A stretch of 64,000 nt of DNA. Origin: an uncultured Methanosarcinales archaeon. Lineage in GTDB: Archaea > Nanobdellota > Nanobdellia > Woesearchaeales > CAZOXR01. The position numbers were made by a program, and so were the translations under genes. Position 1 is the first letter of the stretch, and every line of letters begins with the position of its first letter. The notes beneath the pieces were generated by a model that ran no database searches, had not been told where the DNA came from, and saw only the letters and a program-made list of their open reading frames with translations. Of this stretch, positions 13,987 to 60,875 are shown one piece after another. The stretch is from assembly GCA_964566535.1 (NCBI GenBank), contig CAZMIO010000003.1, forward strand, positions 89,153 to 153,152, in the 5' to 3' direction.

Positions 13987-14355
13987 TTATCTTTGACTAA
14001 ATGCTTTTCTCTCTGTCCTTACATCTCCAATAATCCTCGAAACCAAATCTCCATGTTCAGATCTAATATCGCTTCTATTTACTCTTTGCTTAAAAGCAAC
14101 ACCATAAATGTCAACTAACATCTTCTCAACATCAGTTACCCTTGCATTGTATAATGTAACAAGAGTATCTTTCCTTCTTGTTAATGGATGAAGTACACCA
14201 TCCTCGCTATTCGAACTAGTCCATCTTAATCCAGGTTTTTGCTCTTGGGCATCATAAATCACATCAAAACCACGGACTTCTCGCCCACCATCAACTTCAC
14301 AACCTACGGTATACGAACCCACATCTACCCATTCTGGCATTTCGTTTTGTTCCAT
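13987..14355 (-). CDS. hypothetical protein (non-host amino-acid composition)
   Basis: This 122-aa protein is Arg/Asp/Glu/Gly-rich with few Lys. It is co-directional with and downstream of the HD-domain ORF. Confidence 0.35.
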   Translation of the reverse strand: MEQNEMPEWVDVGSYTVGCEVDGGREVRGFDVIYDAQEQKPGLRWTSSNSEDGVLHPLTRRKDTLVTLYNARVTDVEKMLVDIYGVAFKQRVNRSDIRSEHGDLVSRIIGDVRTERKAFSQR

Positions 14356-14407
14356 TTTTGTTCATCTGTAATTATAATCTTCACTCCTTGCCTTTTCGAA
14401 TGCTTCC

Positions 14408-15685
14408 CTACCCTTTAATCATAGGAGCTTCATACCTTCCATAAGCTTCCCTAAACTTCCTTATCCCATCAAACACAACATGGCCCATAGCATAATCTTT
14501 GGCACCCCTTCTCCGATAGTGATCTTCCATCTCCTGAATCTCTCCAAAAGTTCTCACAATCAGCTCTGTTCTTAAATCAACTAATAGTTGAGGTTCATAG
14601 TGTTCTAAGAACACATCAATCCCTCTTAACACTTCAATATTCCGCTCAAACCTTTTTACTCTATCCTTAAGTTCAAGTTCATAAAGCCAATTAGTATTAT
14701 CAATAGCATCAGCAGCCTTAACAATCAATGGAGCGGCAATATACAACTCCATTTCTTCGGAATCACCCACTACATTACTAACTAATCCATAATTCTCTAC
14801 ACCTAAACACCCTTCAACCAATTCAGACATATATTCTCCATAATCTTGTCCAACTCCTTTCATATCTCTATCCTTAGTTAACAACCTTAATTGATACAAT
14901 TTTAGTTCTGCATCACTAGAATCAACAACTTCCTTTTCAAGATCATCTTCACCAACAACTACATGACTTCTTCCAAAAGTGAATATTTCTCTAACTCCTT
15001 CATATTCAGGAGGATTACGTATATCTCTAACATATTCAGCTCTCCTAACTTCATCATCAGTCCCTCCAAATAACTCTAATCTATAATCTGTTACATCTTC
15101 AATAACATCGTGCAAAAGACCCAACACTCTATGGTGTAATGGAGCACCATACGCATGAAGATTACCAGCCACCCTGGCAGGATGAACAAAACTACGTGCA
15201 TCCTTCCCAACCTCTCCACCTTTCCTTTGTTTTCCGGTCCAATTATGTCTTCTCTGCGCAAAATTAAATGTTCTAATAGTTCCCTCTCCAACCGCCCATG
15301 GAATCAATATCCTATTTGCAAAATAAAAATCATCTAATCTGCCCCTACCATACCTATCAGCAAAAACTCTCTCTACGCTAACACTATCTTCTCTCAACAA
15401 ACCTCGATCACTAACTTCAAGCCCATCAGTAGAAATTCTATTGTTCCTATAATGCCCCATATCTTCAAGTGTCCTCTGAGGTCCTCTAAGTCTATAAACC
15501 ACTTCTGTAGCAACACTTCTTCTATTAACTCTTCTTCCCGTCCTCACAATATCAAAAACTAGTCTCTGCGCATCAGATTCACTCTCCAACATCCCAGGAA
15601 GTCTACATCTCTTAATACGTTCTTCTAATTTACCGATATCATGTTCAGCCCCATTAATTGGCTCTTTGTCGTCGTCCATAGCCAT
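14408..15685 (-). CDS. HD-domain phosphohydrolase, RelA/SpoT-like (candidate (p)ppGpp hydrolase); non-host composition
   Basis: GLLHDVIEDVT matches the RelA/SpoT HD signature (LLHDVVEDT) and KAADAIDN is similar to the downstream KLADRLHN motif. It has 425 aa and very low Lys content. Confidence 0.45.
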   Translation of the reverse strand: MAMDDDKEPINGAEHDIGKLEERIKRCRLPGMLESESDAQRLVFDIVRTGRRVNRRSVATEVVYRLRGPQRTLEDMGHYRNNRISTDGLEVSDRGLLREDSVSVERVFADRYGRGRLDDFYFANRILIPWAVGEGTIRTFNFAQRRHNWTGKQRKGGEVGKDARSFVHPARVAGNLHAYGAPLHHRVLGLLHDVIEDVTDYRLELFGGTDDEVRRAEYVRDIRNPPEYEGVREIFTFGRSHVVVGEDDLEKEVVDSSDAELKLYQLRLLTKDRDMKGVGQDYGEYMSELVEGCLGVENYGLVSNVVGDSEEMELYIAAPLIVKAADAIDNTNWLYELELKDRVKRFERNIEVLRGIDVFLEHYEPQLLVDLRTELIVRTFGEIQEMEDHYRRRGAKDYAMGHVVFDGIRKFREAYGRYEAPMIKG

Positions 15686-15749
15686 AAGATAACCTTTCGC
15701 GTTTTAAATAGTTTTCCAAACAATCATTACTAAAAAGTAACTAACTACA

Positions 15750-16148
15750 TTATTGGAAACTAACCTTCATTTCAACGTTCCCTTTCAATCCATCAACAAA
15801 TCCCCTATCTAAATCTCTAGCCCCTTTATCACTTCTAATCCCTAAGGTTCTCTTAGAATTAAACTCAGATTTCCTAATAACAATCTCTTCAGAATCATCA
15901 AAGTCAGGATTAATCTGAGCACTTATCACTTCTTCCTTATTCTTCATTTTTATCGTTATTTTCAACGATTTATCATTATTTTTTATTTTATTTTCAATGA
16001 ATTTTTTTAGTAATGGCAGTTCAAAATCAGCCCTGACCCCAACTATACAATCGCCATTTAAAGTTAACTCTTTATCCTTAGTAAACTCAATAGTTGTCTT
16101 ATGATTACTTAATATATTAGAATGTCCAAATGCAGAAAATTCATACAT
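15750..16148 (-). CDS. hypothetical protein (DUF371-like?)
   Basis: The ORF was trimmed to start at MYEFSAFGHSNIL so that it does not overlap the upstream small gene. Confidence 0.35.
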   Translation of the reverse strand: MYEFSAFGHSNILSNHKTTIEFTKDKELTLNGDCIVGVRADFELPLLKKFIENKIKNNDKSLKITIKMKNKEEVISAQINPDFDDSEEIVIRKSEFNSKRTLGIRSDKGARDLDRGFVDGLKGNVEMKVSFQ

Positions 16149-16408: not shown

Positions 16409-16909
16409 TTAAGAAGACTTATGCCCCTGTTCCATATACCCTAAATGTTTAGGTGGCCTTAATTGTTCTTCTGTAGGTTCAATACCAATCATCTTACAAA
16501 CGTCAATAAATACTTCCCGTTGTTGAACATACCCCGTTAACATACTCAAAGCCTCATCGTAAGAAACCCATTGATAGTCACTATGCTCACCTTCAGCTGT
16601 TGCTATATCTACTTGAGAACCAACAGGCGCACGTACTGCATAAGTTACTAAGTCAATATGTATCGGATTACCACTTTTTTCAGTATCAAATCCAATGTAG
16701 TGTCTCGTATCTTCAATAATCTCTAGATGCCTCAATCCTTGAGCTTCTTCTCTAGTCTCTCTTATCGCTGCCTCAATATCACTCTCCCCTTCTTCTATAC
16801 CTCCACCAGGACTCTCCCAAAATCCTTTCCTAGCTCTAAGTAATAAGAATCTATAATCTCCATTATTTTCATCGTATACTATTGCCCTTACATTATTTCT
16901 TGTTTTCAT
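16409..16909 (-). CDS. Nudix hydrolase
   Basis: The Nudix box GGGIEEGESDIEAAIRETREEAQG matches GX5EX7REUXEEXGU. Confidence 0.75.
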   Translation of the reverse strand: MKTRNNVRAIVYDENNGDYRFLLLRARKGFWESPGGGIEEGESDIEAAIRETREEAQGLRHLEIIEDTRHYIGFDTEKSGNPIHIDLVTYAVRAPVGSQVDIATAEGEHSDYQWVSYDEALSMLTGYVQQREVFIDVCKMIGIEPTEEQLRPPKHLGYMEQGHKSS

Positions 16910-17018
16910 ACGCTAAAGGACCCATAGGCATTATATAAATCTTATGGTAGTAACAACACCAAAAACTCATTCAACAATCTTTATAAATCAAACTACAACC
17001 CATTTCATAAGGGGTAGT

Positions 17019-18896
17019 ATGGATAAAACAAATTTCCTTGATATTATAAACGAGCCAAAAGACTTAAGGCTATTAAACAAAGTACAATTAAAGTACTTAG
17101 CAAACGAACTAAGGCAATACATAATTAACACAGTTTCTAAAACAGGCGGACATCTAGCACCATCTTTAGGAGTAGTAGAGCTAACAATAGCGCTACATTA
17201 CGTTTTCAACTCTCCAACTGACAGAATTGTATGGGACGTAGGTCACCAGTCTTATCCTCACAAACTTCTAACAGGCAGAAAAGACATTTTTAGCACATTA
17301 AGACAATATAAGGGAATGTCAGGCTTCCCAAAAACAGAAGAATCTGATCATGACGCATTCAATACTGGACATTCCTCAACTTCAATCTCAGCAGCGCTAG
17401 GGATAGCCAAAGCAAGAGACCTAAAAGAGGAAGATCATAAAGTCATAGCTGTAATAGGGGACGGAGCAATGACTGGCGGATTAGCCTTTGAAGGACTTAA
17501 TCATGCAGGATCTTCAAAAACAAATCTTATAGTTATCCTAAATGACAACAAGATGTCCATCTCCCCAAATGTTGGAGCTCTCTCATCATACCTAGGTAAA
17601 ATGGTTACTAATCCTAAGTACCATGAAATAAGAAAAAAACTAGAACATTCACTAAGAAGAGTTCCAAGAATTGGTTCAAAGGCAGCTGAAAAAGCAATGA
17701 ATTTAGAAGATACCTTACGAGCATTATCAAATCCAGGAATGTTGTTCAAAGAACTCGGTTTTAGCTACTTCGGCCCAATTGATGGACATAACCTTGATGA
17801 CCTAATCAAAGCACTTCACAACATAAAGCTAATAGAAGGCCCAATCCTTCTACATATACACACAAAAAAAGGAAAAGGCTACTCTCATGCAGAAAACAAT
17901 AAAACAAAGTTCCATGGAATAAGTCCTTTCAATATAGACGATGGAGAAAAGGTAAAATGCGCAAATGCTCCAACTTACACCGAAATATTCTCAAAAACAA
18001 TCGTAAAGTTAGCCCAAGAAAACGAAAAAATAACTGCAATAACAGCAGCAATGGCACCAGGAACTGGACTCGATGATTTCTCAAAACAATTCCCAGAAAG
18101 ATTCTTCGATGTAGGCATAGCAGAACAGCATGCAGTTACTTTTGCAGCAGGATTAGCAATAAACGGATTCAAACCAATCTGCGCAATCTACTCAACTTTC
18201 CTACAAAGAGCATTCGATCAAATCATACATGATGTTTGCCTACAAAAACTTCCAGTCATCTTCGCAATTGACCGTGCAGGCTTAGTTGGAGAAGACGGAC
18301 CAACACATCACGGACCATTTGACATCTCATTCCTAAGACACATTCCTAACCTAGTAATTATGGCACCAAAAGACGAAAACGAATTCCAACACATGTTAAA
18401 AACAGCAGAGCAACATAACGGCCCAGTTGCAATAAGATACCCAAGAGCTTGTGGGTTAGGAATAGAATTAGATGAAAAACTAACCTCATTACCAATGGGA
18501 AAAGCAGAGATAATTGAGGAAGGAAAAGATGTTTTAATCCTAGCAATCGGAACGTGCGTTCAAAAATCAATAGAAGCAGCAGAAGAACTAGAAAAAAACA
18601 ATATCAAACCAACAATAGTAAACGCAAGATTCGCAAAACCTCTAGACGAACAATTAATAATTAAATTAGCAAACAAAATCCCAAATATCCTAACAGTAGA
18701 AGAAAACACCCTAGAAGGCGGCTTCGGCTCATCAATATTAGAAATTCTAGAGAAGAACAACATCAAAGCAAACGTCGAAAGAATAGGGGTCCCAGATAAG
18801 TTCGTCGAAGCAGGACCAATCGACGTTTTAAAGAAAAGTATAGGCCTAACAAAAGAGAATATTGCAAAAGTTGCAACTAAATTAGTAAAAAAATGA
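17019..18896 (+). CDS. dxs: 1-deoxy-D-xylulose-5-phosphate synthase
   Basis: GGHLAPSLGVVELTIALHYVFNSPTDRIVWDVGHQSYPHKLLTGR, the TPP motif GDGAMTGGLAFEGLNHAG and ILNDN match Dxs. The start was chosen at MDKTNFLD. Confidence 0.9.
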   Translation: MDKTNFLDIINEPKDLRLLNKVQLKYLANELRQYIINTVSKTGGHLAPSLGVVELTIALHYVFNSPTDRIVWDVGHQSYPHKLLTGRKDIFSTLRQYKGMSGFPKTEESDHDAFNTGHSSTSISAALGIAKARDLKEEDHKVIAVIGDGAMTGGLAFEGLNHAGSSKTNLIVILNDNKMSISPNVGALSSYLGKMVTNPKYHEIRKKLEHSLRRVPRIGSKAAEKAMNLEDTLRALSNPGMLFKELGFSYFGPIDGHNLDDLIKALHNIKLIEGPILLHIHTKKGKGYSHAENNKTKFHGISPFNIDDGEKVKCANAPTYTEIFSKTIVKLAQENEKITAITAAMAPGTGLDDFSKQFPERFFDVGIAEQHAVTFAAGLAINGFKPICAIYSTFLQRAFDQIIHDVCLQKLPVIFAIDRAGLVGEDGPTHHGPFDISFLRHIPNLVIMAPKDENEFQHMLKTAEQHNGPVAIRYPRACGLGIELDEKLTSLPMGKAEIIEEGKDVLILAIGTCVQKSIEAAEELEKNNIKPTIVNARFAKPLDEQLIIKLANKIPNILTVEENTLEGGFGSSILEILEKNNIKANVERIGVPDKFVEAGPIDVLKKSIGLTKENIAKVATKLVKK

Positions 18897-19936
18897 TAAG
18901 AAAGCCAACCAAAGAGATTAAAATCGGTAACGTAACCATCGGCAACAATAATCCTATCGCCATCCAATCGATGACAAACACATTAACTAAGGATGTAACT
19001 GCCACAATTAACCAAATCAAAGAACTCCAAGAATTAGGCTGCGAAATAGTAAGAGTTTCTGTACCAGACCAAGAATCAGTCAACGCCTTAAAAGAAATAA
19101 AACAAAACATAAACATACCGTTAGTAGCAGATATTCATTTCGACGCAAAACTAGCAATTGAAGCAGCAAAATACGCAGACAAACTAAGAATCAATCCAGG
19201 AAACATCGGTAATGAAGAAAAAATTAAGCAAGTTATCAACGCAGCAAAAGAAAACAACATCCCAATCAGAATTGGAGTTAACCTAGGCTCATTAGAAAAA
19301 GACCTAGAAAAAGAATACGGCTTAACACCAAAAGCAATGCTAGAATCAGTTAAAAGACAAATAGCAATCTTCGAAAAAAACGATTTCCATAACATCGTAG
19401 TAGCACTAAAAACGTCAGACATCAAAAAAACAATTGAAGTCAACAGAATGTTCGCAAAAGAATACGACTACCCTATACATCTAGGAATAACAGAAGCAGG
19501 CTCTGGGTTCTCAGGCACAATAAAATCATCAATTGGAATTGGAACATTACTACAAGATGGAATCGGAGACACAATCAGAGTTTCACTATCAGCCCAACCA
19601 AACGAAGAAGTAAAAGTAGCAAAACAAATATTATCTTCATTAAAGATAAGAAAGTTCGGTGTAGAAATAACCTCTTGCCCAACCTGCGCAAGAGCAAACC
19701 TTGACGTAATCCAAACAACAAAAGAATTAGAAAAACTAACCGAAAAAAGTAAAACTCCAATCAGCATAGCAGTAATGGGCTGCGCAGTAAACGGACCAGG
19801 CGAAGCAAAAGAAGCCGATATTGGCGTAGTCGGGGGAATTGACGAATGCCTACTCTACAAAAAAGGAGAGATAATAAGAAAAATAAAAAAAGAAGATATT
19901 TCTAAAGTTTTATTGGATGAGATTGAAGGAAGATGA
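18893..19936 (+). CDS. ispG: 4-hydroxy-3-methylbut-2-enyl diphosphate synthase
   Basis: PIAIQSMTNT, VRVSVPD, LVADIHFD, LRINPGNIG, HLGITEAG and CPTC...GCAVNGPGE are collinear with bacterial GcpE. It overlaps the dxs stop. Confidence 0.9.
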   Translation: MIRKPTKEIKIGNVTIGNNNPIAIQSMTNTLTKDVTATINQIKELQELGCEIVRVSVPDQESVNALKEIKQNINIPLVADIHFDAKLAIEAAKYADKLRINPGNIGNEEKIKQVINAAKENNIPIRIGVNLGSLEKDLEKEYGLTPKAMLESVKRQIAIFEKNDFHNIVVALKTSDIKKTIEVNRMFAKEYDYPIHLGITEAGSGFSGTIKSSIGIGTLLQDGIGDTIRVSLSAQPNEEVKVAKQILSSLKIRKFGVEITSCPTCARANLDVIQTTKELEKLTEKSKTPISIAVMGCAVNGPGEAKEADIGVVGGIDECLLYKKGEIIRKIKKEDISKVLLDEIEGR

Positions 19937-20361
19937 AGGCAAGAATAATCCCAATGCCGCCGAGGGGGAGCGTAGGTGAAGATTACACTCAAGTTGGTGG
20001 TCCACCTTATTTATTATTTGAAGGCGAAGCTGAAGGATATGATATAGTTCTTGGTTATAGGATCATTCCCGGAGACTCACAGCAGGTTGCACACAGAGTC
20101 CAATCTGCAGATCTTAGATTAGAGACCGATATCAGAGCAATACCTACAGGAGACATTTCAATCGCAGCAGAATATGAAAGCGAGAGTACTGGTGATTTAG
20201 TAGAAGCAGTAATTAGGGAGTCTAGAAACTTTGCTAAATTAGGAAATGCTGACTACTATTTTGTTGATTTGACTAGTCCAGGAATTATAACTTCACCCGT
20301 GCCACCATTCCGAGGGAGACCATATGTTGTTGTTAGACCTTTATTATTTAGAGGGATATAA
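19933..20361 (+). CDS. hypothetical protein (non-host composition), translationally coupled to ispG
   Basis: An ATGA overlap joins it to the ispG stop. It is 142 aa, Gly/Pro/Arg/Asp/Glu-rich, with 2 Lys. Confidence 0.35.
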   Translation: MKARIIPMPPRGSVGEDYTQVGGPPYLLFEGEAEGYDIVLGYRIIPGDSQQVAHRVQSADLRLETDIRAIPTGDISIAAEYESESTGDLVEAVIRESRNFAKLGNADYYFVDLTSPGIITSPVPPFRGRPYVVVRPLLFRGI

Positions 20362-20424: not shown

Positions 20425-21642
20425 ATGTACGAAATACTAAAACTATCATTAATCTTAATAGTAATGATAATTATTATAGCTAGAAAGCTAGACCTAATCT
20501 ACGCCATCTTATCAGGAATCATACTAACAGGATTCTTATTCAACCACTCGAGAGGATTCATACCTGACTTCACAGAAACAATAACTGACTTCAAAGTAAT
20601 CAATATCCTAATTGTCTTCTACTTCGTATTCTACCTAAGTAACCTACTCACAGACGCAGGAATCTTAAAAAAAATGCTAGCATCATTAGAAAAGTTCATC
20701 AAAGACATACGTTTCGTAATAATCTCATTACCTTTGATGATAGGTATTGTTCCAGCACCATCCGGAGCAATGCTCTCAGCACCCTTTGTCAACGAATTAG
20801 GGGACAGAGTAAAATTATCACCAACTAGAAAATTAATAATCAACTATTGGTATAGGCATGTAACAGAATACCTAAATCCAATCTATCCAGGACCAATTAT
20901 CTTAACTGCCCTATTAGGAATTACCTTCACCCAATTATTCACATTAAACATACCTATAATGTTGTTCGTAATAATCCTAGGATTCTTCATGTTTGTCATA
21001 AACATAAAATCAACCGAAAAAAACGATGAAAAACCAACAAAGAATGACCTTAAAAACATACTAAATGGAATACTTCCGATCTTCATAGCAATCCTACTAC
21101 CAATAATCTTCAAGATAAATATTTCAATATCATTAATAGTTGCAATCCTCCTAATAATTGTAGTAAACAAATTAAACATCCAAACGCTAAAGCCAGTCTT
21201 CAAAAAAGCATTCAAACCAAATATTTTAGTCTTAATATTCCTGATAATGTACTTCAAAGTTATCTTAGAAAACTCAAAAGCAGTTGAATTAGTCTCAAAT
21301 CAATTCATAACATTAGGATTCCCACCAATCTTCTTAATAATCTTACTACCTTTGGTTGTAGGTTTCATGACTGGAATGACAATAGCTTATGTTGGACTAG
21401 CCTTCCCCTTACTAATACCACTTATGCAAACTCCAACAGGACTAAATATGTCATTTGTCATGCTCGCCTATGTAGCAGGATTCGTAGGCGTATTAGCAAC
21501 ACCAACTCACTTATGTTTCTCAGTAACGAAAGAATACTTCAAGGCCCCATACACAAAACTCTACAAAAAACTATTACCTGCATTAACACTTCTACTAACA
21601 TTCGCAATAATTCTAGCTCTATTCGGTTGGAGCGGGTTCTAG
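20425..21642 (+). CDS. polytopic membrane protein / putative permease
   Basis: It is 405 aa with about 10-12 hydrophobic segments. Confidence 0.5.
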   Translation: MYEILKLSLILIVMIIIIARKLDLIYAILSGIILTGFLFNHSRGFIPDFTETITDFKVINILIVFYFVFYLSNLLTDAGILKKMLASLEKFIKDIRFVIISLPLMIGIVPAPSGAMLSAPFVNELGDRVKLSPTRKLIINYWYRHVTEYLNPIYPGPIILTALLGITFTQLFTLNIPIMLFVIILGFFMFVINIKSTEKNDEKPTKNDLKNILNGILPIFIAILLPIIFKINISISLIVAILLIIVVNKLNIQTLKPVFKKAFKPNILVLIFLIMYFKVILENSKAVELVSNQFITLGFPPIFLIILLPLVVGFMTGMTIAYVGLAFPLLIPLMQTPTGLNMSFVMLAYVAGFVGVLATPTHLCFSVTKEYFKAPYTKLYKKLLPALTLLLTFAIILALFGWSGF

Positions 21643-21709: not shown

Positions 21710-22705
21710 ATGTTACAAAATCAATTTGCAGATCCAAGATATACAGGTTTAGATACTTTTCTAGCTGGCGATACATTTGCAGGCATAGAAAGCGCTTATT
21801 CTCCAGACACTGCACATCATGTTCAAAGAATGACTGCACAGTTTTACAAAGTACTGGGTCGAAATCCCGCTAAAGAAGCTGAAATTCCATCAAGAGTAGC
21901 AGCAGCTGAAGCAATTGTAGAACAATTAACAACAGATGAAGTAGTAAATTCAATTGATAAGTGGAGACAACTAATCTATAGCTGTACTGATGCACCAGAT
22001 TTTATGCCAGATGATCTTCCTTCATGGGTAACCCCTGACGAATATCCAGGAGACCTCACTTCAGGTATACTAGCTTATTTTATAAGACCTAGTGAAGCTT
22101 TAGCCGAATCTGCTCATTTAGATGAGGCATACGATATTGTTGATAAGTTACCTGACTTCATGAAACCTAGGACAGTTAGAGCAATTACAAGAGCAGGACA
22201 ATCGCCATCTACTCATCTAGTAGGAAGAAATACTTTTGGATTACCCTCAGCAAAATATGCTCATGACATTGCAGAAAATGTTTACGCAACAGAAGAGCTA
22301 GCTGAACTTACCGAAGTTTATACTCGTTTCCTTAGAAATCCAGATAATACGCAAGTTGAGAATCTAGCAAGAATAGTATTAAACCCACTCCACGCAAAAG
22401 TAGAGGCAGATTATAGGAAAACACCTTACCATTCACCAGAACATTGGCAGGGATTAAGAAATTATGCATCTGCTATGGCACAACCCGAGGGAAGAACAAA
22501 TGTTGGTTTAAATATTGCTAATAAACTTGCAAGAACTGGTTTAAAAGAATCTGGAATGCAAAGTATCATGGATTATGCCCAACAAAAACAAGTTGGTAGA
22601 GATCAACTAAGAGGGCAAGTTGCAAAGCTCTCAAGAAAATTACGTGACGGTACTACGCCACAACCACAAACCTTAGGTGATTTTAATCAATTACTAATGT
22701 CTTAA
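21710..22705 (+). CDS. hypothetical protein (non-host composition)
   Basis: It is 331 aa with about 4 percent Lys against a host-typical content well above 10 percent. No motif was recognised. Confidence 0.35.
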   Translation: MLQNQFADPRYTGLDTFLAGDTFAGIESAYSPDTAHHVQRMTAQFYKVLGRNPAKEAEIPSRVAAAEAIVEQLTTDEVVNSIDKWRQLIYSCTDAPDFMPDDLPSWVTPDEYPGDLTSGILAYFIRPSEALAESAHLDEAYDIVDKLPDFMKPRTVRAITRAGQSPSTHLVGRNTFGLPSAKYAHDIAENVYATEELAELTEVYTRFLRNPDNTQVENLARIVLNPLHAKVEADYRKTPYHSPEHWQGLRNYASAMAQPEGRTNVGLNIANKLARTGLKESGMQSIMDYAQQKQVGRDQLRGQVAKLSRKLRDGTTPQPQTLGDFNQLLMS

Positions 22706-22817
22706 ATTTCTAACATCGTGGATACCTTAAAATCTTTGAAAACTAATTCTAGCTATATTCGGTTGGAGTGGATTTTAACAACAAAATATTTATATCATCT
22801 AATCACAAAAGAAAGGT

Positions 22818-43788: not shown

Positions 43789-43850
43789 AACAATCTTTAA
43801 ATTATATATTATAATAAACTTTATATTGACTGGCCAGTTCCACACTTACA

Positions 43851-44171: not shown

Positions 44172-44191
44172 GGGAAAAGTTATTCAACAAC

Positions 44192-44974: not shown

Positions 44975-45097
44975 TTTTAAATCCTCACCATAACCAGAGA
45001 AACACTTAACCTATTTTTAAATCTTCTCATTAACCTCATTTTCTGTTAAAATAAAAACAAAAACTATATATAATCCAAATCCAAAAATTAACCTAAC

Positions 45098-50359: not shown

Positions 50360-50707
50360 CTATCGTCCTTGAACAATACCGTATAATGCTACAATTATTC
50401 CATCTTCTCTATCTTGAACTGCTTTAACATCTTCATCACTCACACCCTCAGGTACTGGCCTATACGGTAACATAAAAGTATAATCTCGACTACCATCACC
50501 AGAAGTACCAGCACTTGCAAATTGATAAGGAAAATGATCCTGAGCAACCGGAATACCATCCTCTCCTTGACGTACAGTTATCCTTACTGAATGTAAAATA
50601 GGTTCTAACTCATCAACAAAACCCCTCATTCTTTCTTCTGGAACAGGACCAATCTCAATCATCCTTTGTCCCATAACATTCATATCAAGAGGTTGTTGTG
50701 TTGCCAT
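50360..50707 (-). CDS. hypothetical protein (non-host composition)
   Basis: It is 115 aa, Pro/Gly/Asp/Glu/Arg-rich, with about 1 Lys. Confidence 0.3.
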   Translation of the reverse strand: MATQQPLDMNVMGQRMIEIGPVPEERMRGFVDELEPILHSVRITVRQGEDGIPVAQDHFPYQFASAGTSGDGSRDYTFMLPYRPVPEGVSDEDVKAVQDREDGIIVALYGIVQGR

Positions 50708-52803: not shown

Positions 52804-53673
52804 TTATCCTAAATAGAATGTACTTCCCTTATAACCTTCCTGAAGGCCACTAACGGGAGTCATTCTAACAGCAACATTACCATCAGGCATAAGTGTTTGA
52901 AGTTTCCCAGTTAAATCTGCCTTATCAATAGGCCCTTTTAACGCAGACATATGTTGCAAAACTCCTAATCCAAAATTCCTTCCACCTTCTCTTAATTCTA
53001 AATACACTGGCATAAACATCAATTCAACTAGGTCAAGAGGACTTCCATCTTCCATCGCTAGATGTTCAACACCAATATCAGTTCCTTCAAAACGTGAAGC
53101 AAAATCACCTGCATCAAAGTCTACAGTATTTCTTTGAAAATCTCCAAAGTATGCCCTAAGTCCTCTTTCAAAATCAACATCTCCATCTAATTGATTTACT
53201 CTTAATCCATCACTATTAGAAAAACCAACCTTCCCTGTTACATAGCCAGCTCCATCATTAGTCCCAAACAATGCTTTTAATCCATATTTAATCTCAGTTG
53301 CTACACGAACCCCTCCCCTATCAACATGTTTACGGGGCGCATCTGGACTAATTGATAGCATATAGAGATCTCCTTCCATTCTACGTCCTAAAAGCGCGTG
53401 AGCCCCAACTAAATAACTATCTAATGATGTTCGATCTTCTGGAAAATGAATCTCTGCTGTTGCTGTATGTGATTTAACATAAGGAACCCTCTTAAAAGCG
53501 CGTGAGCCCCAACCTCCAGTTGTATCTCTTTCCCCAATTACCACAGAATTACCAATAGAAGCCAATACATGAGGTTGACCTTGAGCTAAAACCCTTAAAT
53601 CTTGTTTTAAACCAAGAGCACCATAAACATCTTCTGGTGTAACTCCTCTTAAAGAACCCTCATCTGGTGCCAT
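52804..53673 (-). CDS. hypothetical beta-rich protein (non-host composition)
   Basis: It is 289 aa, Gly/Asp/Arg-rich, with alternating hydrophobic patterns (VRVATEIKYGLKALF, YVTGKVGF) suggestive of beta-strands. Confidence 0.35.
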   Translation of the reverse strand: MAPDEGSLRGVTPEDVYGALGLKQDLRVLAQGQPHVLASIGNSVVIGERDTTGGWGSRAFKRVPYVKSHTATAEIHFPEDRTSLDSYLVGAHALLGRRMEGDLYMLSISPDAPRKHVDRGGVRVATEIKYGLKALFGTNDGAGYVTGKVGFSNSDGLRVNQLDGDVDFERGLRAYFGDFQRNTVDFDAGDFASRFEGTDIGVEHLAMEDGSPLDLVELMFMPVYLELREGGRNFGLGVLQHMSALKGPIDKADLTGKLQTLMPDGNVAVRMTPVSGLQEGYKGSTFYLG

Positions 53674-53776: not shown

Positions 53777-54187
53777 ATGAAACCTATGTACGCGTTAATG
53801 GGTGTAGCTGCTCTATACGCTGCTGCTACAATAGGATGTTCTCAAGGTCCTGAATATAGTAATATAAAAGCTCTAGGTCCTACACTCCCCAGAGGTGCTA
53901 TTAATGCAATAGTAGATGCTAGAGAAACAGTAAAAGGAAGAGATGGAGTAGTAGAAGATCGAGAAACTACAGTGGATGATTTTGGTGGAGTAAGAGACCA
54001 ATATCCTAACATTGGTAACAGAGCTACAGCACTTCTAGCAGCTTCTAATACATCGGCAAAAGATGTAATGGGAATTTATGATTGGGTAAGAGAACAAAAT
54101 CCTGACTATACCCATGAACAAGCAGCAGCTGGTCCTCCACTTGCAGAAGTTAGGATCCGTGCAGAAAGCGTAGTCGATACTTTATAA
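53777..54187 (+). CDS. putative secreted or lipoprotein (non-host composition)
   Basis: The N-terminal MKPMYALMGVAALYAAATIGCSQG resembles a signal peptide with a lipobox-like Cys. It is 136 aa. Confidence 0.35.
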   Translation: MKPMYALMGVAALYAAATIGCSQGPEYSNIKALGPTLPRGAINAIVDARETVKGRDGVVEDRETTVDDFGGVRDQYPNIGNRATALLAASNTSAKDVMGIYDWVREQNPDYTHEQAAAGPPLAEVRIRAESVVDTL

Positions 54188-54258: not shown

Positions 54259-55464
54259 TTAATACTTAGAATTTCGTTGAATCATTCTTAATCTCCAACC
54301 AGGATCTTCTAGAGCCCGAGCATATACCTTTTCAAGATCTTCCATTATCCCATTTGGAGTATCCGGATCAACACCAAACCTATCAATCACTCTCCTTCTC
54401 TCATCTGGATGGAAAAGAAAAACTTGTCTATCAACTAAATCCACAAGCCAATCGTAAAAAAATGTTGGCTCTCCTAAGATCCTATCAATCCCTCTCAGTA
54501 TAACTGCACCTTTCTTTGCTAATCCATTTGGTGTATTAATTGGTTTTCCACCTAATCCAGCAATATTCCTCATCATAATAGTTAATTCTCTCTGACTTGG
54601 TGCATCACTTTGAGCAACAACATATGTATCTTGATATTGTTCTTCACTTCCAATTGCGCTAAGAATAACATCCGATACTTTATCAACATGGATATAAGGA
54701 CTTCTACCACTACCTTCTCCTGGAATAAAAGCTCTCATTGCATGTTGTTTAATTTTTACTAGCCCACCCTTTACTGAAGAACTATCTGTTAGAGGTATAA
54801 AACCATACAATAACATATCTAAAATTGGTGATTCTGAATCTGGTGTTGAATAAACTATTAGTAACCTTAAAATTAAGTGATTATCAGGTAATCCAATTCT
54901 AATTCTTTCTTCTGCCCTAAGCTTAGACTTACTGTAAGGCATAATTGGCCCTTCATCTATCCCTAAATCTACAGAACGACCATACCTAAGATAATGCTCT
55001 TCTGTTAATCCATCCCTAGTAAAGGCAGAGTAATCTTCATCTCTAACATCTGTTACTGACATTGGTTCATATACAGTAGTCCCACTAGTTTGTATAAAAA
55101 GGGGTTTATCACCCTCACATACTCTTTCTAAGCTTGTAGCAAATTTATCAATTGGACCAACATTTACTGATTGATATTCATCAAAATACTTATCTTTAAA
55201 TGAAATAAATGTAGCAGCACTTACTATTGCACGAATATCATGATTCCCAAAAAGTCTTTCTAAAAAAGCATCATAATCTTCTTGAGGATTTCTTAAATCA
55301 AATATTTCCTCTTTATACAAGGGGTTGGCAATATCTTGAGGATTTCTAGTTACCCCAACTACTTCATAACCTTCATTTAATAGCCTTTGAACTAAGTTTG
55401 ACCCAACAAACCCAGAACAGCCTGTAAGTACAACAGTTCCTTTATTTTCTTCTAATCTATTCAT
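54259..55464 (-). CDS. extended SDR NAD-dependent epimerase/dehydratase-like protein with a C-terminal extension (non-host composition)
   Basis: It has the Rossmann motif TGCSGFVGSNL and the catalytic YSKSK (YxxxK). It is 401 aa. Confidence 0.55.
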   Translation of the reverse strand: MNRLEENKGTVVLTGCSGFVGSNLVQRLLNEGYEVVGVTRNPQDIANPLYKEEIFDLRNPQEDYDAFLERLFGNHDIRAIVSAATFISFKDKYFDEYQSVNVGPIDKFATSLERVCEGDKPLFIQTSGTTVYEPMSVTDVRDEDYSAFTRDGLTEEHYLRYGRSVDLGIDEGPIMPYSKSKLRAEERIRIGLPDNHLILRLLIVYSTPDSESPILDMLLYGFIPLTDSSSVKGGLVKIKQHAMRAFIPGEGSGRSPYIHVDKVSDVILSAIGSEEQYQDTYVVAQSDAPSQRELTIMMRNIAGLGGKPINTPNGLAKKGAVILRGIDRILGEPTFFYDWLVDLVDRQVFLFHPDERRRVIDRFGVDPDTPNGIMEDLEKVYARALEDPGWRLRMIQRNSKY

Positions 55465-55588
55465 TTTAAATTAACACTTAAGTTAAAGCAGTGGTTAAAA
55501 TGAATGGTATTAAAAATCTTCCTATATTTATCACTATTAAGAAGTCATTTTCATAATATTTTTAAAGCCTTTACCGTTATCCAGCCCC

Positions 55589-56986
55589 ATGGAGCTTAAA
55601 TCTGGAGATAATGTTGTAATAGCTGGTGGTGGACCTGCTGGTAGTTTAGCAGCTATCATTCTCATGGATCATGCTAGTACAATGGACCTTCCCCTAGAAG
55701 TAACAGTCCTCGAAAAAAAAGATTTTGATAAACAAGGTCATGGAGGATGCAATTCTTGTGCTGGAGTAGTTTCTACCCAATTAGTTGATGATTTATCCAA
55801 AATGGGGATCCACATCCCTGAACATGTAATTCAAAGATATATTGACGGTTACACTGTCGAAACACCTAGGGAATCTTTATCTATGACAGATGCTAATGAG
55901 CATATTGTTACAGTATTTAGAGGAAATGGACCTGGACGTGCAAGTTATGACGAATCTGTAAGTTTTGATGGATTTTCAAAAAGTGAAGCAGAAAAAAGAG
56001 GAGCTCAGTTCGTAAATACAACTGTAACCTCAATAACACCTCCCAAATCTTTAGAAGAAAGAGTAGCAATTACTACAAAGGTTTCAGCAAAAGAAGGTGA
56101 AGTTGTTTATGAAGCTGACCTTCTTATTGGAGCTCTTGGAATGCCTGGAGTAAAAATCTTTGAAGATGCAGGTTTTGGTTACAAGAAAGCAAGAACTGTT
56201 AGACTTGCTCAAACTGAAATTGCAATGGATCCAGAAACAATAGGGGATATATTTGGGAAACACGTTCATGTTTACTACCTTGATATTCCTGGAATCTGGC
56301 ATGCTGCAATTACTCCAAAAAGAGAATACATAACTGTCTCAATTTTAAGTTCAGGCAATTCATCCAGAGAAACCTCTCGCTCCTTAAGACAAAAATTAGA
56401 TCAATTTCTTAATCATGATGCAATAACAAGGAAAGTCACAGATAGACTACCAGACGATCAAGCAATTGCCGATGCTTTAGAACGGGGGATGGTACTAGAA
56501 CCAAGTTGTTTTTGTGCTCCAGAAATGCCCTACAAAGATTCAGTTAATCCTTATGGGGATAGAATTGCCATTATAGGGGATGCAGCATATTCAAGATTAT
56601 TCAAAAACGGCGTTGAGTCCGCTTTTACAACAGCTGAAATGGCAGTAAAAGCAGCACTAGATCATGGAGTATCAAGAGAAGAATTAAAAGCGCATTATCA
56701 TGAACCAGCAGCTAGGAGATTTAATGATGATAACCGATATGGTAGGGCCCTTTTTAGAATTGGGGGTTACTCATCAAGAGTTAGAGGGATGGTTGATTCC
56801 CACCTTAGGGTTGCTCAAACTGACTCAGATAATGGAAGAAGATTAAAAGACATGTACTGGTCAATGTCTACTGCTGGTAAGCCCTATAGAGATATTTTTG
56901 CAGATGTATTACACCCGGGTCTTTTAATGGAAATAGGCATTGCCTCAGTAAGAGGTGTAGTACCAGCTTATGTTAGAAGAAGATAA
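55589..56986 (+). CDS. FAD-dependent oxidoreductase (geranylgeranyl-reductase / flavin monooxygenase-like; non-host composition)
   Basis: The N-terminal VVIAGGGPAGSLAA is a dinucleotide-binding motif. It is 465 aa. Confidence 0.5.
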   Translation: MELKSGDNVVIAGGGPAGSLAAIILMDHASTMDLPLEVTVLEKKDFDKQGHGGCNSCAGVVSTQLVDDLSKMGIHIPEHVIQRYIDGYTVETPRESLSMTDANEHIVTVFRGNGPGRASYDESVSFDGFSKSEAEKRGAQFVNTTVTSITPPKSLEERVAITTKVSAKEGEVVYEADLLIGALGMPGVKIFEDAGFGYKKARTVRLAQTEIAMDPETIGDIFGKHVHVYYLDIPGIWHAAITPKREYITVSILSSGNSSRETSRSLRQKLDQFLNHDAITRKVTDRLPDDQAIADALERGMVLEPSCFCAPEMPYKDSVNPYGDRIAIIGDAAYSRLFKNGVESAFTTAEMAVKAALDHGVSREELKAHYHEPAARRFNDDNRYGRALFRIGGYSSRVRGMVDSHLRVAQTDSDNGRRLKDMYWSMSTAGKPYRDIFADVLHPGLLMEIGIASVRGVVPAYVRRR

Positions 56987-59042: not shown

Positions 59043-59293
59043 ACGAAGACTTCGGAGAAGACATACTGGTTAAAGTAATCAGCGTTAAAGGAAAATGCGA
59101 ATATGGTCACCATAAAGGCCACAAATTCCCTCATCCCTTCCTTGGCTTATGCCCTTACGCACAACATACTTTATGGCCCTACATTACTGCAAAAAGATTT
59201 GGCGGAAAAATACCTTGGGAGAAAAACAATAAACTAAAAATCAGCTGCCCAAACCCAGATGACTTAGTAGTTTTCGAATTAAGCATAAAATGA
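59033..59293 (+). CDS. small Cys/His-rich protein (TIGR04076-like?)
   Basis: It is 86 aa. The motifs CEYGHHKGHKF and CPYAQH suggest metal binding. Confidence 0.35.
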   Translation: MGIDEDFGEDILVKVISVKGKCEYGHHKGHKFPHPFLGLCPYAQHTLWPYITAKRFGGKIPWEKNNKLKISCPNPDDLVVFELSIK

Positions 59294-59652
59294 ACCTAAG
59301 AGCACATCATCTTCTCTGTAAGAAATACTTTCAAGGCAAAGGTTATAGTGATGAATTCGTTAAAAACTACTACGAAGTTCTAAAACAACTAAACTCAAAC
59401 CCAACAATAAGAGTAACCAACTCACCAGACATCCTCTGCAGCAAATGTCCACATCTCAACAACAACAAATGCTCAAAAAAACCAGATTCCGAAATAAAAG
59501 TTAGCAAAAAAGACACCAAAATAATAAACATTCTTAAACTAAAACCAAACCAAGAAATAAAAGTAAACGAAGCAGACGAATTAGTTAACCTTAATCTAAA
59601 CGAATTAAAAGAACTCTGCAAAAACTGTGAATGGAAAGAGTATTGTAAATAA
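59290..59652 (+). CDS. DUF1284-like Cys-rich protein
   Basis: The N-terminal LRAHHLLC, plus CSKCPHLNNNKC and the C-terminal CKNCEW..C, match the LRPHHLLC-type DUF1284. Confidence 0.5.
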   Translation: MNLRAHHLLCKKYFQGKGYSDEFVKNYYEVLKQLNSNPTIRVTNSPDILCSKCPHLNNNKCSKKPDSEIKVSKKDTKIINILKLKPNQEIKVNEADELVNLNLNELKELCKNCEWKEYCK

Positions 59653-59693
59653 CTTTTTATTTAAGCTATGTTCTTATATTCTAAGCTAAAAAG

Positions 59694-60875
59694 ATGGGAA
59701 ACGCTATTTATCTATCAAATAGACATTTTGTACCTGACCACCCCATAGAACAATTAGCAGTTTTAGACAGCCTCAACCTCAGAAAACCAGGCCATGCTGA
59801 ATATTTCATTGAAACTCACTTCGGAGAAAAAGGTGTTTCAACAACTACAGAAAAGAGTACCAGAACAAGAGAAGAAATTGCTGCCATCTACTGCGGTGAC
59901 CCAGATATAAGAAATATTTACTGGCGCTATCTTAATCTAACATTAGCACGAGCCAAAGACGAAGTAGCAGAACAACTACAACCCCACCAAAGAAAATTAT
60001 ACTTTGATCGTGAACGAGACGCTGCAAGAGAAAGGGAATCGGAAGGTCCATCTGTACAAAGACTAAATGATTTAGTTGAAAATACACTTGGGGGATATCT
60101 ACCAAGAACTGAATTAGAAGAAAGGACTGAATCTAGAGAGTTTAGAGCATGGACATATGAAGCTGCCAGGCCCTACCTCCCAGGGGATTATTATGAATTT
60201 TGGGATGACAAACAGGGTTATAAGGATAAACTCAATGCCATTGACTTAAATGATCCAGATGAACTATATCTATTTGTCAGGAACCTGTTAGGCATAACAG
60301 TAACTAGAGCAGAAATAGATCACTTAATGACTGATGATACAAGAGATAAAATACTAGACTTAACTGCAGAATGTAGAACTGATTTCGTAGAATTTCAAAA
60401 ATACCAAACAGTCGATGATGATGGGTCCTTTATATCTCAAATGAGAAAATGGAATCCTTATGCATTTTGGGACGGGAATGTTTGGGATAGGTTAGATGGC
60501 AGACATATAGATTCAGAAGGGGATGTTCGAAAAGCATCAGCCATAATGAGAGGTTTATTTCGTTTTCATGGTTCCAACAGAAAATTGCTTTATAAAGATC
60601 CACGGAACGGAGATATGAGAGTTAGAGTAGAAAAATACCCTCAAATGAAAAATCTCAGAGAAGCTAACGAACTTTGTGATTACACTGATTACCAATTAGA
60701 GGTTATTTTAGAAGCCCCAATTAGAGGAATAGATAAACTATTCTTAATAGTTGATTTTGACAAGGAAATGGAGGAAAGAGATCAACAAGAGATACTAAAT
60801 AACCTCCATGCACTATATGCAAGAGACTTTGAATTAAGAAGGAGAAGTTTTAAGCAAAGAAGAAGACCATTGTAA
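59694..60875 (+). CDS. hypothetical protein (non-host composition)
   Basis: It is 393 aa, Arg/Asp/Glu-rich with low Lys. No motif was recognised. Confidence 0.35.
   Translation: MGNAIYLSNRHFVPDHPIEQLAVLDSLNLRKPGHAEYFIETHFGEKGVSTTTEKSTRTREEIAAIYCGDPDIRNIYWRYLNLTLARAKDEVAEQLQPHQRKLYFDRERDAARERESEGPSVQRLNDLVENTLGGYLPRTELEERTESREFRAWTYEAARPYLPGDYYEFWDDKQGYKDKLNAIDLNDPDELYLFVRNLLGITVTRAEIDHLMTDDTRDKILDLTAECRTDFVEFQKYQTVDDDGSFISQMRKWNPYAFWDGNVWDRLDGRHIDSEGDVRKASAIMRGLFRFHGSNRKLLYKDPRNGDMRVRVEKYPQMKNLREANELCDYTDYQLEVILEAPIRGIDKLFLIVDFDKEMEERDQQEILNNLHALYARDFELRRRSFKQRRRPL

Follow-up and report, generated by a model that had tools for sequence, protein, structure and literature searches.

Known systems and the present locus

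Lawrence and Ochman reportedly described, in 1997, compositionally atypical genes acquired by horizontal transfer and their subsequent amelioration. Marine prokaryotes possess a flexible genome with gene turnover at hot spots, together with lineage-restricted ORFans. Lysine-poor proteins that escape modification or degradation aimed at lysine are represented by ‘lysine deserts’ and by lysine-poor toxin A chains, and the small alarmone hydrolase/synthetase modules of RelA/SpoT homologues include toxSAS-type pairs. Bacterial-type genes occur in DPANN archaea, an example being the MEP pathway of Woesearchaeota subgroup J (PMC8421398, PMC8204110).

The window analysed here is a 64,000-nt stretch of a marine Candidatus Woesearchaeota (DPANN) contig of ~35% GC. 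As in amelioration, it contains an atypical gene subset that is patchy among relatives and differs from its neighbours in a codon-position-specific manner. In this case, however, the departure lies mainly in the amino acids (Arg in place of Lys, acidic proteins), the synonymous sites are AT-richer than those of the host, with GC3 under rather than over the host value, and the genes are scattered singly instead of forming a large island, with no integrase, tRNA or mobile-element genes in the window. The resemblance to marine flexible genomes and ORFans is that the genes are orphans that differ among close relatives at recurrent core-gene junctions; unlike those, they are fixed in the nearly clonal population of the single species sampled, and they share one uniform protein composition that is distinct from the core and from most other DPANN accessory genes. 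The strong Arg-over-Lys bias of a defined protein subset recalls lysine deserts, but several of the proteins are ordinary enzymes (NUDIX, SDR, flavoprotein), and there is no sign that the Lys-poor proteins exit the cell or encounter a system that targets lysine.

Two compositional classes of genes

The window is composed of two compositional classes of genes. The distribution of K/(K+R) is bimodal, a two-component Gaussian mixture being preferred over one component by a delta BIC of 19. The low component (mean 0.31, weight 0.21) consists exactly of 13 ORFs flagged as a population of about that size in a first-pass annotation, plus a NUDIX gene (16409–16909) that it had omitted. All 13 exist where they were placed, one of them (49973–50296) with an alternative upstream TTG start at 49913. 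Their separation from the Lys-rich neighbours is confirmed: the flagged ORFs contain 0.9–4.9% Lys and 3.9–11.5% Arg and have K/(K+R) values of 0.10–0.50, compared with 0.55–1.0 for the remaining window genes, and per-gene binomial P values against the host ratio of 0.76 range from 2e-2 to 4e-18. The class accounts for ~1 gene in 5 and includes three of the 11 genes immediately downstream of the window.

Pooled over the flagged ORFs and the other genes, respectively, Lys is 3.8 versus 9.9%, Arg 8.1 versus 3.1%, Asp 7.7 versus 5.1%, Pro 4.7 versus 3.4%, Ile 5.6 versus 9.9% and Asn 3.2 versus 5.0%. The ORFs had been described as rich in Arg, Asp, Glu, Gly and Pro. This description fits Arg, Asp and Pro; Gly is slightly raised (8.7 versus 7.5%) and the ‘Glu-rich’ label is wrong, because Glu is no higher than in the other genes (7.55 versus 7.51%). 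The products are soluble, acidic proteins.

The Lys-poor genes and their homologues

On the minus strand, the ORF at 13987–14355 (122 aa, K 4.1%, R 10.7%) is an orphan, and it is followed by 14408–15685 (425 aa, K 3.8%, R 11.5%), which includes an LLHDVIEDV motif, and by the NUDIX hydrolase gene (166 aa, K 3.6%, R 7.2%). The HDxxED motif of the 14408 product and its weak matches to RelA/SpoT hydrolase domains suggest an HD hydrolase-like protein of RelA/SpoT type that has diverged very far; the scores are far under the family cut-offs, and the likeness to RelA/SpoT modules concerns this one gene, not the class. Three plus-strand orphans come next: 19933–20361 (142 aa, K 1.4%, R 8.5%, P 9.2%), whose ATG start and the ispG/GcpE (18893–19936) stop codon overlap; 21710–22705 (331 aa), which has an all-helical prediction of low confidence; and 25635–26258 (207 aa, pI 4.5), the weakest member of the class with a K/(K+R) of 0.50.

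The plus-strand ORF at 43851–44171 (106 aa) is Gly-rich with one predicted membrane segment and sits at the point where a publicly available MAG assembly for this species breaks. It is followed by the orphans 49973–50296 (plus strand; 107 aa, or 127 aa from the TTG start) and 50360–50707 (minus strand; 115 aa, K 0.9%, pI 4.5). Four Lys-poor genes lie side by side in a block that opens with a Gly-rich orphan at 52804–53673 (minus strand, 289 aa). The block continues with 53777–54187 (plus strand, 136 aa), whose lipoprotein-like N-terminus (…AAATIGC) makes it the sole export candidate, an NAD-dependent epimerase/SDR-like protein at 54259–55464 (minus strand, 401 aa) with no relative detected beyond its own species, and a geranylgeranyl-reductase-like FAD-dependent oxidoreductase at 55589–56986 (plus strand, 465 aa). 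The closest relatives of the latter are 49–50% identical, one being named Nanoarchaeia; those at 30–35% identity have mostly bacterial names, and some are Lys-poor. The last ORF, 59694–60875 (plus strand; 393 aa, K 4.8%, R 10.7%), is a strict orphan that matched only itself among 1.84 billion representative proteins.

Known domains or recognisable folds are present in four of the Lys-poor ORFs, and 10 have no match in any family library. Pfam matches were obtained for 3 of the 14, compared with ~46 of 53 native genes (Fisher p=6e-6), a native tally that was made by hand and includes several genes not scanned directly. The 14408 product falls among three protein clusters in 5.8 billion, whereas 59694 and 54259 find only themselves, and none of the 14 has a homologue in 80 DPANN loci around aIF5B. 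Where homologues of two of the genes are found in other organisms they are Lys-rich (P0003, K 14.7%; P0004 and P0006, K 10–12%), indicating that the composition is not dictated by the fold. Searches found no donor and no plasmid or defence signal for the Lys-poor genes. The proposal that they are of viral origin drew nothing from PHROGs, IMG/VR or INPHARED. Nor is a secreted class supported, since a signal-like N-terminus is found in 1 of 14 and a predicted membrane segment in 2 of 14, one of which is the N-terminal dinucleotide-binding stretch of 55589. No motif, domain or export signal is common to the set.

An insertion scar and a variable junction

The ORF at 21710–22705 lies within a ~1.1-kb segment bounded by a 34-nt direct repeat that is an insertion scar. 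Copy 1 (21608–21641) corresponds to the last 10 codons of a DUF401 gene lying upstream of the ORF and runs into its stop codon (21640–21642), encoding ...ILALFGWSGF before the stop. Copy 2 (22744–22777) is a displaced fragment of the 3′ end of DUF401, still in frame (...ILAIFGWSGF and stop). The copies are identical at 30 of 34 positions (z=10.7 versus shuffles), and synonymous positions in copy 2 are more AT-rich. A flanking repeat is found at one of the nine Lys-poor blocks.

Two of the window ORFs, 13987–14355 and 14408–15685, occupy the junction between genes for PUA and DUF371 proteins. These two genes adjoin directly in loci L005, L007 and L010; the junction contains differing Lys-poor genes in the window and in L085, L008, L009 and L011. 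L085 is a sister species with aIF5B and DXS 95% identical to those of the window. All five Lys-rich genes of the compared stretch are present in L085, plus one extra Lys-rich gene. One of the five Lys-poor genes, counted over both genomes, is held in common, and two of the three from the window (13987–14355 and 16409–16909) are missing from L085. In this single comparable region, the Lys-poor genes behave as accessory genes. The shared gene, 14408, is 77% identical between the two species, similar to DUF371 at 75%; DUF371 is still 46–54% identical in distant relatives, where a homologue of 14408 is undetectable.

In three relatives whose aIF5B sequences are mutually 70–75% identical, the junction contains syntenic pairs of Lys-poor genes, one encoding an HDxxED protein and the other a weakly RelA_SpoT synthetase-like protein. 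These genes are 26–31% identical to each other, and homology between them and 14408 is not detectable. As a test of whether related archaea share the composition, as expected from vertical inheritance, this one locus with analogous genes is ambiguous. Lys-poor, non-conserved genes with low GC3 and low skew are also found in other skewed Woesearchaeota loci and in 63 AT-rich DPANN loci. The non-conserved genes of other DPANN loci are mostly Lys-rich, however (262 versus 30), so ‘accessory’ status alone fails to explain the composition.

Synonymous sites and strand bias

Native genes in either orientation are alike on the plus strand, with an AT3 skew of +0.40 and a third-position C/(C+T) of 0.48–0.52. 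The strand-specific synonymous bias is weaker in the Lys-poor genes, where the corresponding values are +0.11 and 0.26–0.32 (p=8e-7; p=8e-6 and 3e-5 per orientation). C/(C+T) is most native-like (0.41) in the gene common to L085; it is 0.33–0.34 in the two genes missing from L085, and L085-specific genes have low values as well, a gradient that fits differences in age. Some native genes, probably highly expressed, also have low C/(C+T), so the measure is no pure clock.

These data bear on the possibility that the Lys-poor genes are a native, vertically inherited and fast-evolving functional class, in which selection keeps the acidic Arg-for-Lys composition (for partner-cell interaction or alarmone signalling, for example) and orphans arise by divergence. 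The junction genes of the three relatives might reflect vertical residence over a long period, and fully AT-type synonymous sites, including the first positions of Arg and Leu codons, fit long residence in AT-rich genomes. Gene 14408 is older than the L085 split and has kept its Arg residues: K/R swaps are few and balanced (2 versus 3 among ~65 sites at dS 0.65), far below the expectation for neutral AGA>AAA drift and with no sign of drift toward Lys. Selection would also suit a composition that the fold does not determine. Long residents should nevertheless have reached the strand-specific equilibrium of their neighbours, and the Lys-poor genes have not. The loss of detectable 14408 homologues over distances at which the equally fast DUF371 is readily recognised, the scar at 21710, the two genes absent from the sister species and the lack of any uniting motif, domain or export signal all argue in the same direction, and we consider this explanation rather unlikely, if still worth serious attention.

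The codons of the Lys-poor genes had been called host-like and AT-rich. They are AT-rich and AGA-dominated, with AGR making up 83% of Arg codons compared with 88% in other genes; however, GC3 is below that of the neighbours (0.20 versus 0.28, p=2e-6) and the third-position C/T choice differs sharply. On the window plus strand, after correction for the very strong strand bias, C/(C+T) is 0.29, whereas the local equilibrium value is 0.50 (p=3e-7).

These values weigh against old transfer from a GC-richer lineage, in which synonymous sites would have ameliorated in place while the amino acids lagged. High GC1 and GC2 with low GC3 is what would be predicted if change were fastest at third positions, and the raised Arg, Pro and Gly with lowered Lys, Ile and Asn resemble GC-richer proteomes; the bacterial names and occasional lysine poverty among the distant relatives of 55589 would also fit. 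A C/(C+T) below the local equilibrium, however, rules out monotonic decay from a C-rich state as the cause. Arg (AGR) and Leu (TTR) codons are no less AT-type than those of native genes, and CGN codons are already equally rare, even though CGN-to-AGR conversion requires a transversion. Alanine is not elevated, and Ala (7.2%) and Tyr (4.4%) match a GC content of ~30–40%, not 60%. The nearest relatives of 55589 (the Nanoarchaeia protein among them) and of 14408 are Lys-rich or intermediate, and ordinary GC-rich donors should have left detectable homologues in 1.8–5.8 billion proteins, where none was found. We regard such an origin as distinctly improbable; the source was probably not GC-rich. 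Of the earlier suggestion of scattered acquisitions, the acquired or accessory behaviour is retained (scar, variable junction, L085 differences, absence from the 80 loci, orphans, weaker bias) and the higher-GC source is not.

Transfer might also be dispensed with altogether if Lys enrichment, through AT pressure and nitrogen or cost economy, were strongest in abundant core proteins and the Lys-poor genes were weakly expressed natives. The Lys-rich set does consist mostly of housekeeping and central-metabolism genes, and K/(K+R) tracks third-position C/(C+T) over all genes (rho 0.50). Yet the distribution is bimodal rather than graded, AT pressure should enrich weakly constrained genes in Lys, Asn and Ile instead of depleting them, and the window has Lys-rich hypothetical genes at 1026, 9361, 31318 and 59033. 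With the mostly Lys-rich non-conserved DPANN genes against it, and the scar and the presence–absence pattern left unexplained, this account has little to recommend it.

Coding status

Coding status is established for 14408–15685, the sole testable gene, by comparison with its L085 orthologue (dN/dS 0.20 at dS 0.65, with dS of 0.45–0.68 for the neighbours), and the Lys-poor genes as a set appear to be real. They show clear GC1>GC2>GC3 periodicity, no long competing ORF overlaps them, and all have TATA-like boxes 25–30 nt upstream of the start codon. Although ten ORFs lack family matches and two AlphaFold single-sequence models are unconfident, an artefact of spurious ORFs, wrong frames or chimeric assembly is effectively refuted by these features, by purifying selection on 14408, by the known domains in four ORFs, by the gene-by-gene interleaving of the two classes (one start codon overlapping a native stop) and by the recovery of the same DNA at 99.97–100% identity, in every contig seen of the species, from independent NCBI, JGI, ENA and Logan assemblies.

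A probable later layer of flexible genes

The reading that we favour, with a probability of roughly 0.55, is that the Lys-poor ORFs make up the flexible (accessory) part of the gene content of this marine Woesearchaeote, inserted into an older Lys-rich core. The two classes, the coding status of 14408, the accessory behaviour in the one comparable region, the single scar and the weaker skew are direct results; how old the genes are relative to their neighbours, what kind of source they came from and why they are poor in lysine are inferred. The immediate source would have had synonymous sites that were already AT-rich, as might be the case for other archaea with AT-rich genomes or for mobile elements of theirs that have yet to be sampled, and the proteins would retain the composition of that pool, with Arg in place of Lys, raised Asp and Pro, lowered Ile and Asn and an acidic pI. 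Essentially no AT-rich organisms are known to have Lys-poor proteomes, so the proposed source pool itself lacks an explanation.

On this flexible-complement reading, the Lys-poor ORFs would be working protein genes under ordinary archaeal promoters, placed one at a time or a few together among the genes of the much older core and turning over among close relatives. Having arrived later than their neighbours, they would have accumulated less of the strand-specific mutation bias of the genome. The bacterial-type DPANN genes offer a point of comparison within the window, which has dxs, ispG and dxr and in which the named members of the 55589 family are mainly bacterial. The MEP genes, in contrast to the Lys-poor set, are fully Lys-rich and fully strand-skewed and thus look native. 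The Lys-poor genes are a layer separate from the MEP genes and probably later than them.

Composition and extent of the Lys-poor class

All 13 ORFs that the first-pass annotation set apart as Lys-poor are present as described, with Lys contents of 0.9–4.9% and K/(K+R) values of 0.10–0.50, as compared with 0.55–1.0 for the other genes. A two-component mixture describes K/(K+R) better than a single component by 19 BIC units, and the low component is composed of exactly these 13 ORFs and a NUDIX gene (16409–16909) that had been overlooked. The distinct Lys-poor class is therefore confirmed and slightly extended. It continues beyond the window, where three of the next 11 downstream genes belong to it; together with the window counts, this indicates that about one gene in five is Lys-poor.

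The enrichment in Arg, Asp, Glu, Gly and Pro that had been ascribed to the flagged ORFs holds in part. When pooled and compared with native genes, they are enriched 2.6-fold in Arg, 1.5-fold in Asp and 1.4-fold in Pro, but Glu is not raised and Gly is barely increased. Tyr is enriched 1.6-fold, and Lys, Ile and Asn fall to 0.39, 0.57 and 0.65 of the native level. The Lys-poor proteins are acidic (median pI 5.3 versus 7.6) and soluble, and their genes are higher in GC1 and GC2 and lower in GC3 than native genes. With respect to composition the class resembles a genomic island, since K/(K+R), GC1–3 and strand-corrected third positions all differ; its members are not significantly clustered within the window (runs test, p = 0.09).

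Strand bias and synonymous sites

Fourfold-degenerate sites of native genes contain 0.60 A and 0.25 T in + strand genes, and 0.22 A and 0.61 T in − strand genes. These mirror-image third positions indicate that one DNA strand is strongly A+C-rich whatever the orientation of the gene. This is the + strand of the window, on which genes in either orientation have a third-position AT skew of about +0.40 and a GC skew of about −0.55, and no switch occurs across the 64 kb. Four Woesearchaeota loci (L046, L055, L061 and L069) share such asymmetry, which is absent from most DPANN loci; a comparable strand disparity has been reported for a CPR bacterium (PMC7143001).

Because the contrast between NNT and NNC codons is confounded by gene orientation, the two classes were compared on a common strand. 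Third-position G/(G+A) on the window + strand is 0.13 in Lys-poor and 0.11 in native genes (p = 0.95). Third-position C/(C+T) is lower in the Lys-poor genes, both for + strand genes (0.26 versus 0.48, p = 8e-6) and for − strand genes (0.32 versus 0.52, p = 3e-5), as are AT3 skew on the + strand (+0.11 versus +0.40, p = 8e-7) and GC3 (0.20 versus 0.28, p = 2e-6). Of the 17 genes with the lowest C/(C+T), 13 are Lys-poor, and the others are native genes that are probably highly expressed. The most economical interpretation is a shorter residence of the Lys-poor genes on the strand they now occupy.

The gene shared with L085, the locus of a Tara sister species, has the most native-like C/(C+T) (0.41), and two genes absent from L085 have values of 0.33–0.34. 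Lineage-specific genes of L085 are likewise low in C/(C+T), including one that is Lys-rich. In other strongly skewed Woesearchaeota loci, Lys poverty is tied to non-conservation, low GC3 and low skew, and across 63 AT-rich DPANN loci a K/(K+R) below 0.5 is found in 14–29% of singletons versus 0–4% of widely conserved genes.

Coding status and individual genes

The evidence indicates that the Lys-poor ORFs are genuine genes, with direct evidence of selection for one of them, ORF 14408–15685. Members of the class show strong GC1>GC2>GC3 periodicity, are free of overlapping competing ORFs and have TATA-like boxes 25–30 nt 5′ of their start codons; ORF 19933–20361 overlaps the ispG stop codon. Four members have recognizable folds: the NUDIX protein, an SDR/epimerase (54259–55464), a geranylgeranyl-reductase-like flavoprotein (55589–56986) and a very divergent protein resembling RelA/SpoT-type HD hydrolases (14408–15685). 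The other ten of the 14 have no match in Pfam, NCBIfam, PHROGs or PADLOC. PDB sequence searches with four of these orphans returned no match, and AlphaFold single-sequence models of ORFs 52804–53673 and 21710–22705 are unusable (pLDDT 34–37).

The HD hydrolase-like gene and its L085 counterpart, the one orthologue pair on hand for the class, have a dS of 0.65, within the 0.45–0.68 of neighboring genes, and a dN/dS of 0.20. The HDxxED motif is kept in three homologues. The match to TIGR00691 (E = 6e-4) scores 18 bits, far under the 499-bit cut-off, PDB matches are weak (7oiw, E = 3.5e-3; 1vj7, E = 2e-2) and there is no Pfam match. We infer that the member matching TIGR02032 (E = 5e-11) is the flavoprotein 55589–56986, of which Pfam covers just the N-terminal dinucleotide-binding part.

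Several local features were observed within or beside these genes. ORF 52804–53673 contains a 24-nt direct repeat (53386–53409 and 53490–53513; 96% identical, 104 nt apart), which implies an internal duplication in the encoded protein. A same-species ENA contig (k141_252229, locus L090) lacks 40 nt at 55294–55333, a stretch that is internal to the SDR gene or lies at its 5′ end; the gene is called there as 383 rather than 401 aa. A 22-nt motif, TTTAAAT(N5)CACTTAAGTTAA, is common to 55465–55486, in the divergent promoter region of the SDR and flavoprotein genes, and 61185–61206, upstream of thi4, and may be a shared promoter or operator element.

Insertion scar and comparison with relatives

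The orphan ORF 21710–22705 is bracketed by a 34-nt direct repeat (30/34 identical; z = 10.7 versus shuffles). Copy 1 forms the final ten codons and stop of the upstream DUF401 gene, and copy 2 is an in-frame remnant 3′ of the Lys-poor ORF. This repeat is a physical insertion scar. No flanking repeats were found at the remaining eight of the nine Lys-poor blocks.

The comparison of gene presence with close relatives covers the region at 11–19 kb of the window. The aIF5B of the nearest GTDB species is only 62–65% identical to that of the window, and the L085 aIF5B and DXS proteins are 95% identical. The order aIF5B–PUA–DUF371 is conserved across relatives, and PUA and DUF371 adjoin in three of them. 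In the window, L085 and three other relatives, the PUA–DUF371 junction is filled by 1.7–4.3 kb of genes that differ between genomes, all of them Lys-poorer than their neighbors. L085 contains the HD hydrolase-like gene but lacks ORF 13987–14355 and the NUDIX gene, and has two other Lys-poor genes instead.

Three relatives whose aIF5B proteins are 70–75% identical to one another hold analogous Lys-poor HDxxED and RelA_SpoT-like genes at this junction, with a mutual identity of just 26–31%. Profile–profile comparison did not link ORF 14408–15685 to their HD proteins, or the 368-aa protein of L085 to their RelA_SpoT-like proteins. The junction module (L008 6987–10475, L009 13377–17445, L011 11551–15190, L085 2495–5600) comprises an HDxxED protein of 420–535 aa and a protein of 368–389 aa, fused in L009 (795 aa). 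The smaller partner has weak RelA_SpoT synthetase matches in L009 and L011, and the module may be a fast-evolving archaeal alarmone synthetase–hydrolase pair.

Homologues and searches for an origin

Homologues of the Lys-poor genes are scarce. None of the 14 has a homologue in 80 DPANN loci. The HD hydrolase-like protein falls in three clusters among 5.8 billion proteins, the SDR protein matches only itself, and ORF 59694–60875 is alone among 1.84 billion representatives in an exhaustive search. The flavoprotein is the only one of the 14 that belongs to a broad family; its nearest relatives are 49–50% identical, one of them from a Nanoarchaeia MAG, and at 30–35% identity the names are mostly bacterial. 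Homologues elsewhere contain 14.7% Lys (P0003) or 10–12% (P0004 and P0006), and the median K/(K+R) of flavoprotein family homologues is 0.64. Since homologues elsewhere are not Lys-poor, the composition belongs to the window copies and not to the folds.

A viral origin or a secreted class had also been proposed; neither is supported by the searches, or by hydropathy and pI in the case of secretion. IMG/VR scans with three ORFs found no relatives, and by simple hydropathy a signal-like N-terminus is present only in the lipoprotein-like ORF 53777–54187. One hydrophobic or membrane segment is predicted in each of ORF 43851–44171 and the flavoprotein; the remaining proteins are predicted to be soluble. 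No Lys-poor ORF has a recombinase or phage match in Pfam, PHROGs or NCBIfam.

Searches directed at specific origins likewise gave no support. For a provirus, PHROGs matches are confined to the four known-fold members and absent from the ten orphans, and for a phage, INPHARED tblastn with the 11 ORFs lacking a strong family match gave no match. PLSDB, a collection poor in archaeal plasmids, gave no tblastn match. PADLOC matched one of the 14 ORFs (candidate family PDC-S07, E = 2e-9), and no anti-phage defense system could be assembled. Integron cassettes are disfavored: the 14 ORFs have no k-mer or motif in common in their flanking sequence, and no integrase was found. The organisms recovered by a metagenome scan with CysK were all distant (≤69% identity), and the scan retrieved no copy of the Lys-poor genes.

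Native content of the window

The window has a GC content of about 35% and encodes archaeal aIF5B, an A-type ATPase operon, TCA-cycle enzymes, 2-oxoacid:ferredoxin oxidoreductase and HydF. Exact protein look-ups place the same proteins in MAGs named Candidatus Woesearchaeota, and in Tara Oceans and other marine assemblies. No tRNA or tmRNA was found in the window, and an Rfam scan of it gave no match. The ATPase proteolipid (c/K subunit) gene (34545–37916, +) encodes 1123 aa with 13 ATP-synt_C domains; its DNA contains eight 243-nt tandem units with 76% identity and forms the GC peak of the window (about 43%). The only other known 13-hairpin c subunit is that of Methanopyrus kandleri. The bacterial MEP pathway genes dxs (16944–18896), ispG (18893–19936) and dxr (23750–24880) are Lys-rich and fully skewed, as is typical of native genes; this pathway is reported to be specific to Woesearchaeota subgroup J (PMC8421398).

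Genes for HydF and two radical-SAM maturases (HydE/HydG-like) lie at 62044–63973 and downstream (10804–14438 of locus L089), which implies an [FeFe]-hydrogenase in this archaeon. At 28220–29227 (−), a GNAT acetyltransferase domain is N-terminally fused to a 2-oxoacid:ferredoxin oxidoreductase gamma-type domain (POR). The public MAG GCA_030750365.1 is split into two contigs at about 43500–46560, around Lys-poor ORF 43851–44171 and the hemerythrin, CBS and citrate synthase genes; this segment may be strain-variable or difficult to assemble.

Explanations for the Lys-poor class

We favor, with a probability of roughly 0.55, a later-arriving, flexible gene layer drawn from a pool with a distinct composition and AT-rich synonymous sites. 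Its immediate source would already have carried AT-rich synonymous sites and little skew; candidates are other AT-rich archaea or unsampled mobile elements, and gene movement between strands may be an alternative to such a source. An AT-rich, low-skew source does not account for the shortage of lysine, since non-conserved DPANN genes are mostly Lys-rich (262, versus 30 Lys-poor).

A native gene class held Lys-poor by selection is the next explanation to consider, although we think it rather unlikely. Two observations keep it in play: ORF 14408–15685 has retained its Arg residues and shows no drift to Lys at a dS of 0.65, and analogous genes of the same kind occupy the same junction in three relatives. 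Those genes are not detectably related to the one in the window.

The first-pass annotation proposed old transfers from a higher-GC lineage, ameliorated in place. The higher GC1 and GC2 are in keeping with this idea, but the synonymous sites fit it poorly, and we consider it improbable. Third-position C/(C+T) on the + strand is 0.29 versus an equilibrium of 0.50; a value under the local equilibrium cannot be produced by simple decay from a C-rich state, and GC3 (0.20 versus 0.28) does not approach the host value from above. Arg (AGR) and Leu (TTR) codons match those of native genes in their AT-type first positions. Tyr is raised but Ala is not, relatives elsewhere range from intermediate to Lys-rich, and ordinary GC-rich donors should leave detectable homologues.

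An expression-linked effect is very unlikely. High expression does not account for the synonymous difference: codon usage (RSCU) in the Lys-poor genes is unlike that of the probable highly expressed natives (TTC 0.22 versus 0.63; AAG and CAG not raised). Very unlikely, too, is that lysine-avoiding proteins, with Arg at positive sites and an acidic surface, are selected for action in or on a partner cell. Such proteins could be effectors that this DPANN archaeon, presumably a symbiont, passes to its host, where they would be exposed to tagging or degradation directed at lysine, or to a different intracellular milieu. That the class is an artefact can be dismissed for practical purposes; independently made assemblies of the same species are 99.97–100% identical to the window.

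Significance

The Lys-poor layer is a variant of a known theme, that atypical composition marks acquired genes. Unusual here are an amino-acid signal despite AT-rich codons, the scattering of the genes singly, and an independent signal of relative age from strand-corrected synonymous composition. As a caution, proteins that look GC-rich are not safe evidence for GC-rich donors.

Almost all knowledge of DPANN archaea comes from metagenomes, and the majority of their lineage-specific genes lack an assigned function. The Lys/Arg ratio and strand-corrected synonymous composition provide an inexpensive means of separating the old core of such a genome from a later layer, here about 20% of genes. 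If the later layer was acquired, a composition this uniform and unusual suggests that it came from one unsampled source (for example a host, a virus or a mobile element), and locating that source would help to expose the organism's partners. If selection maintains the composition, it marks a candidate set of interaction genes, and if the proteins do act on a partner cell, the class would amount to a fast-evolving set of interaction tools specific to this lineage, and not to passive foreign DNA.
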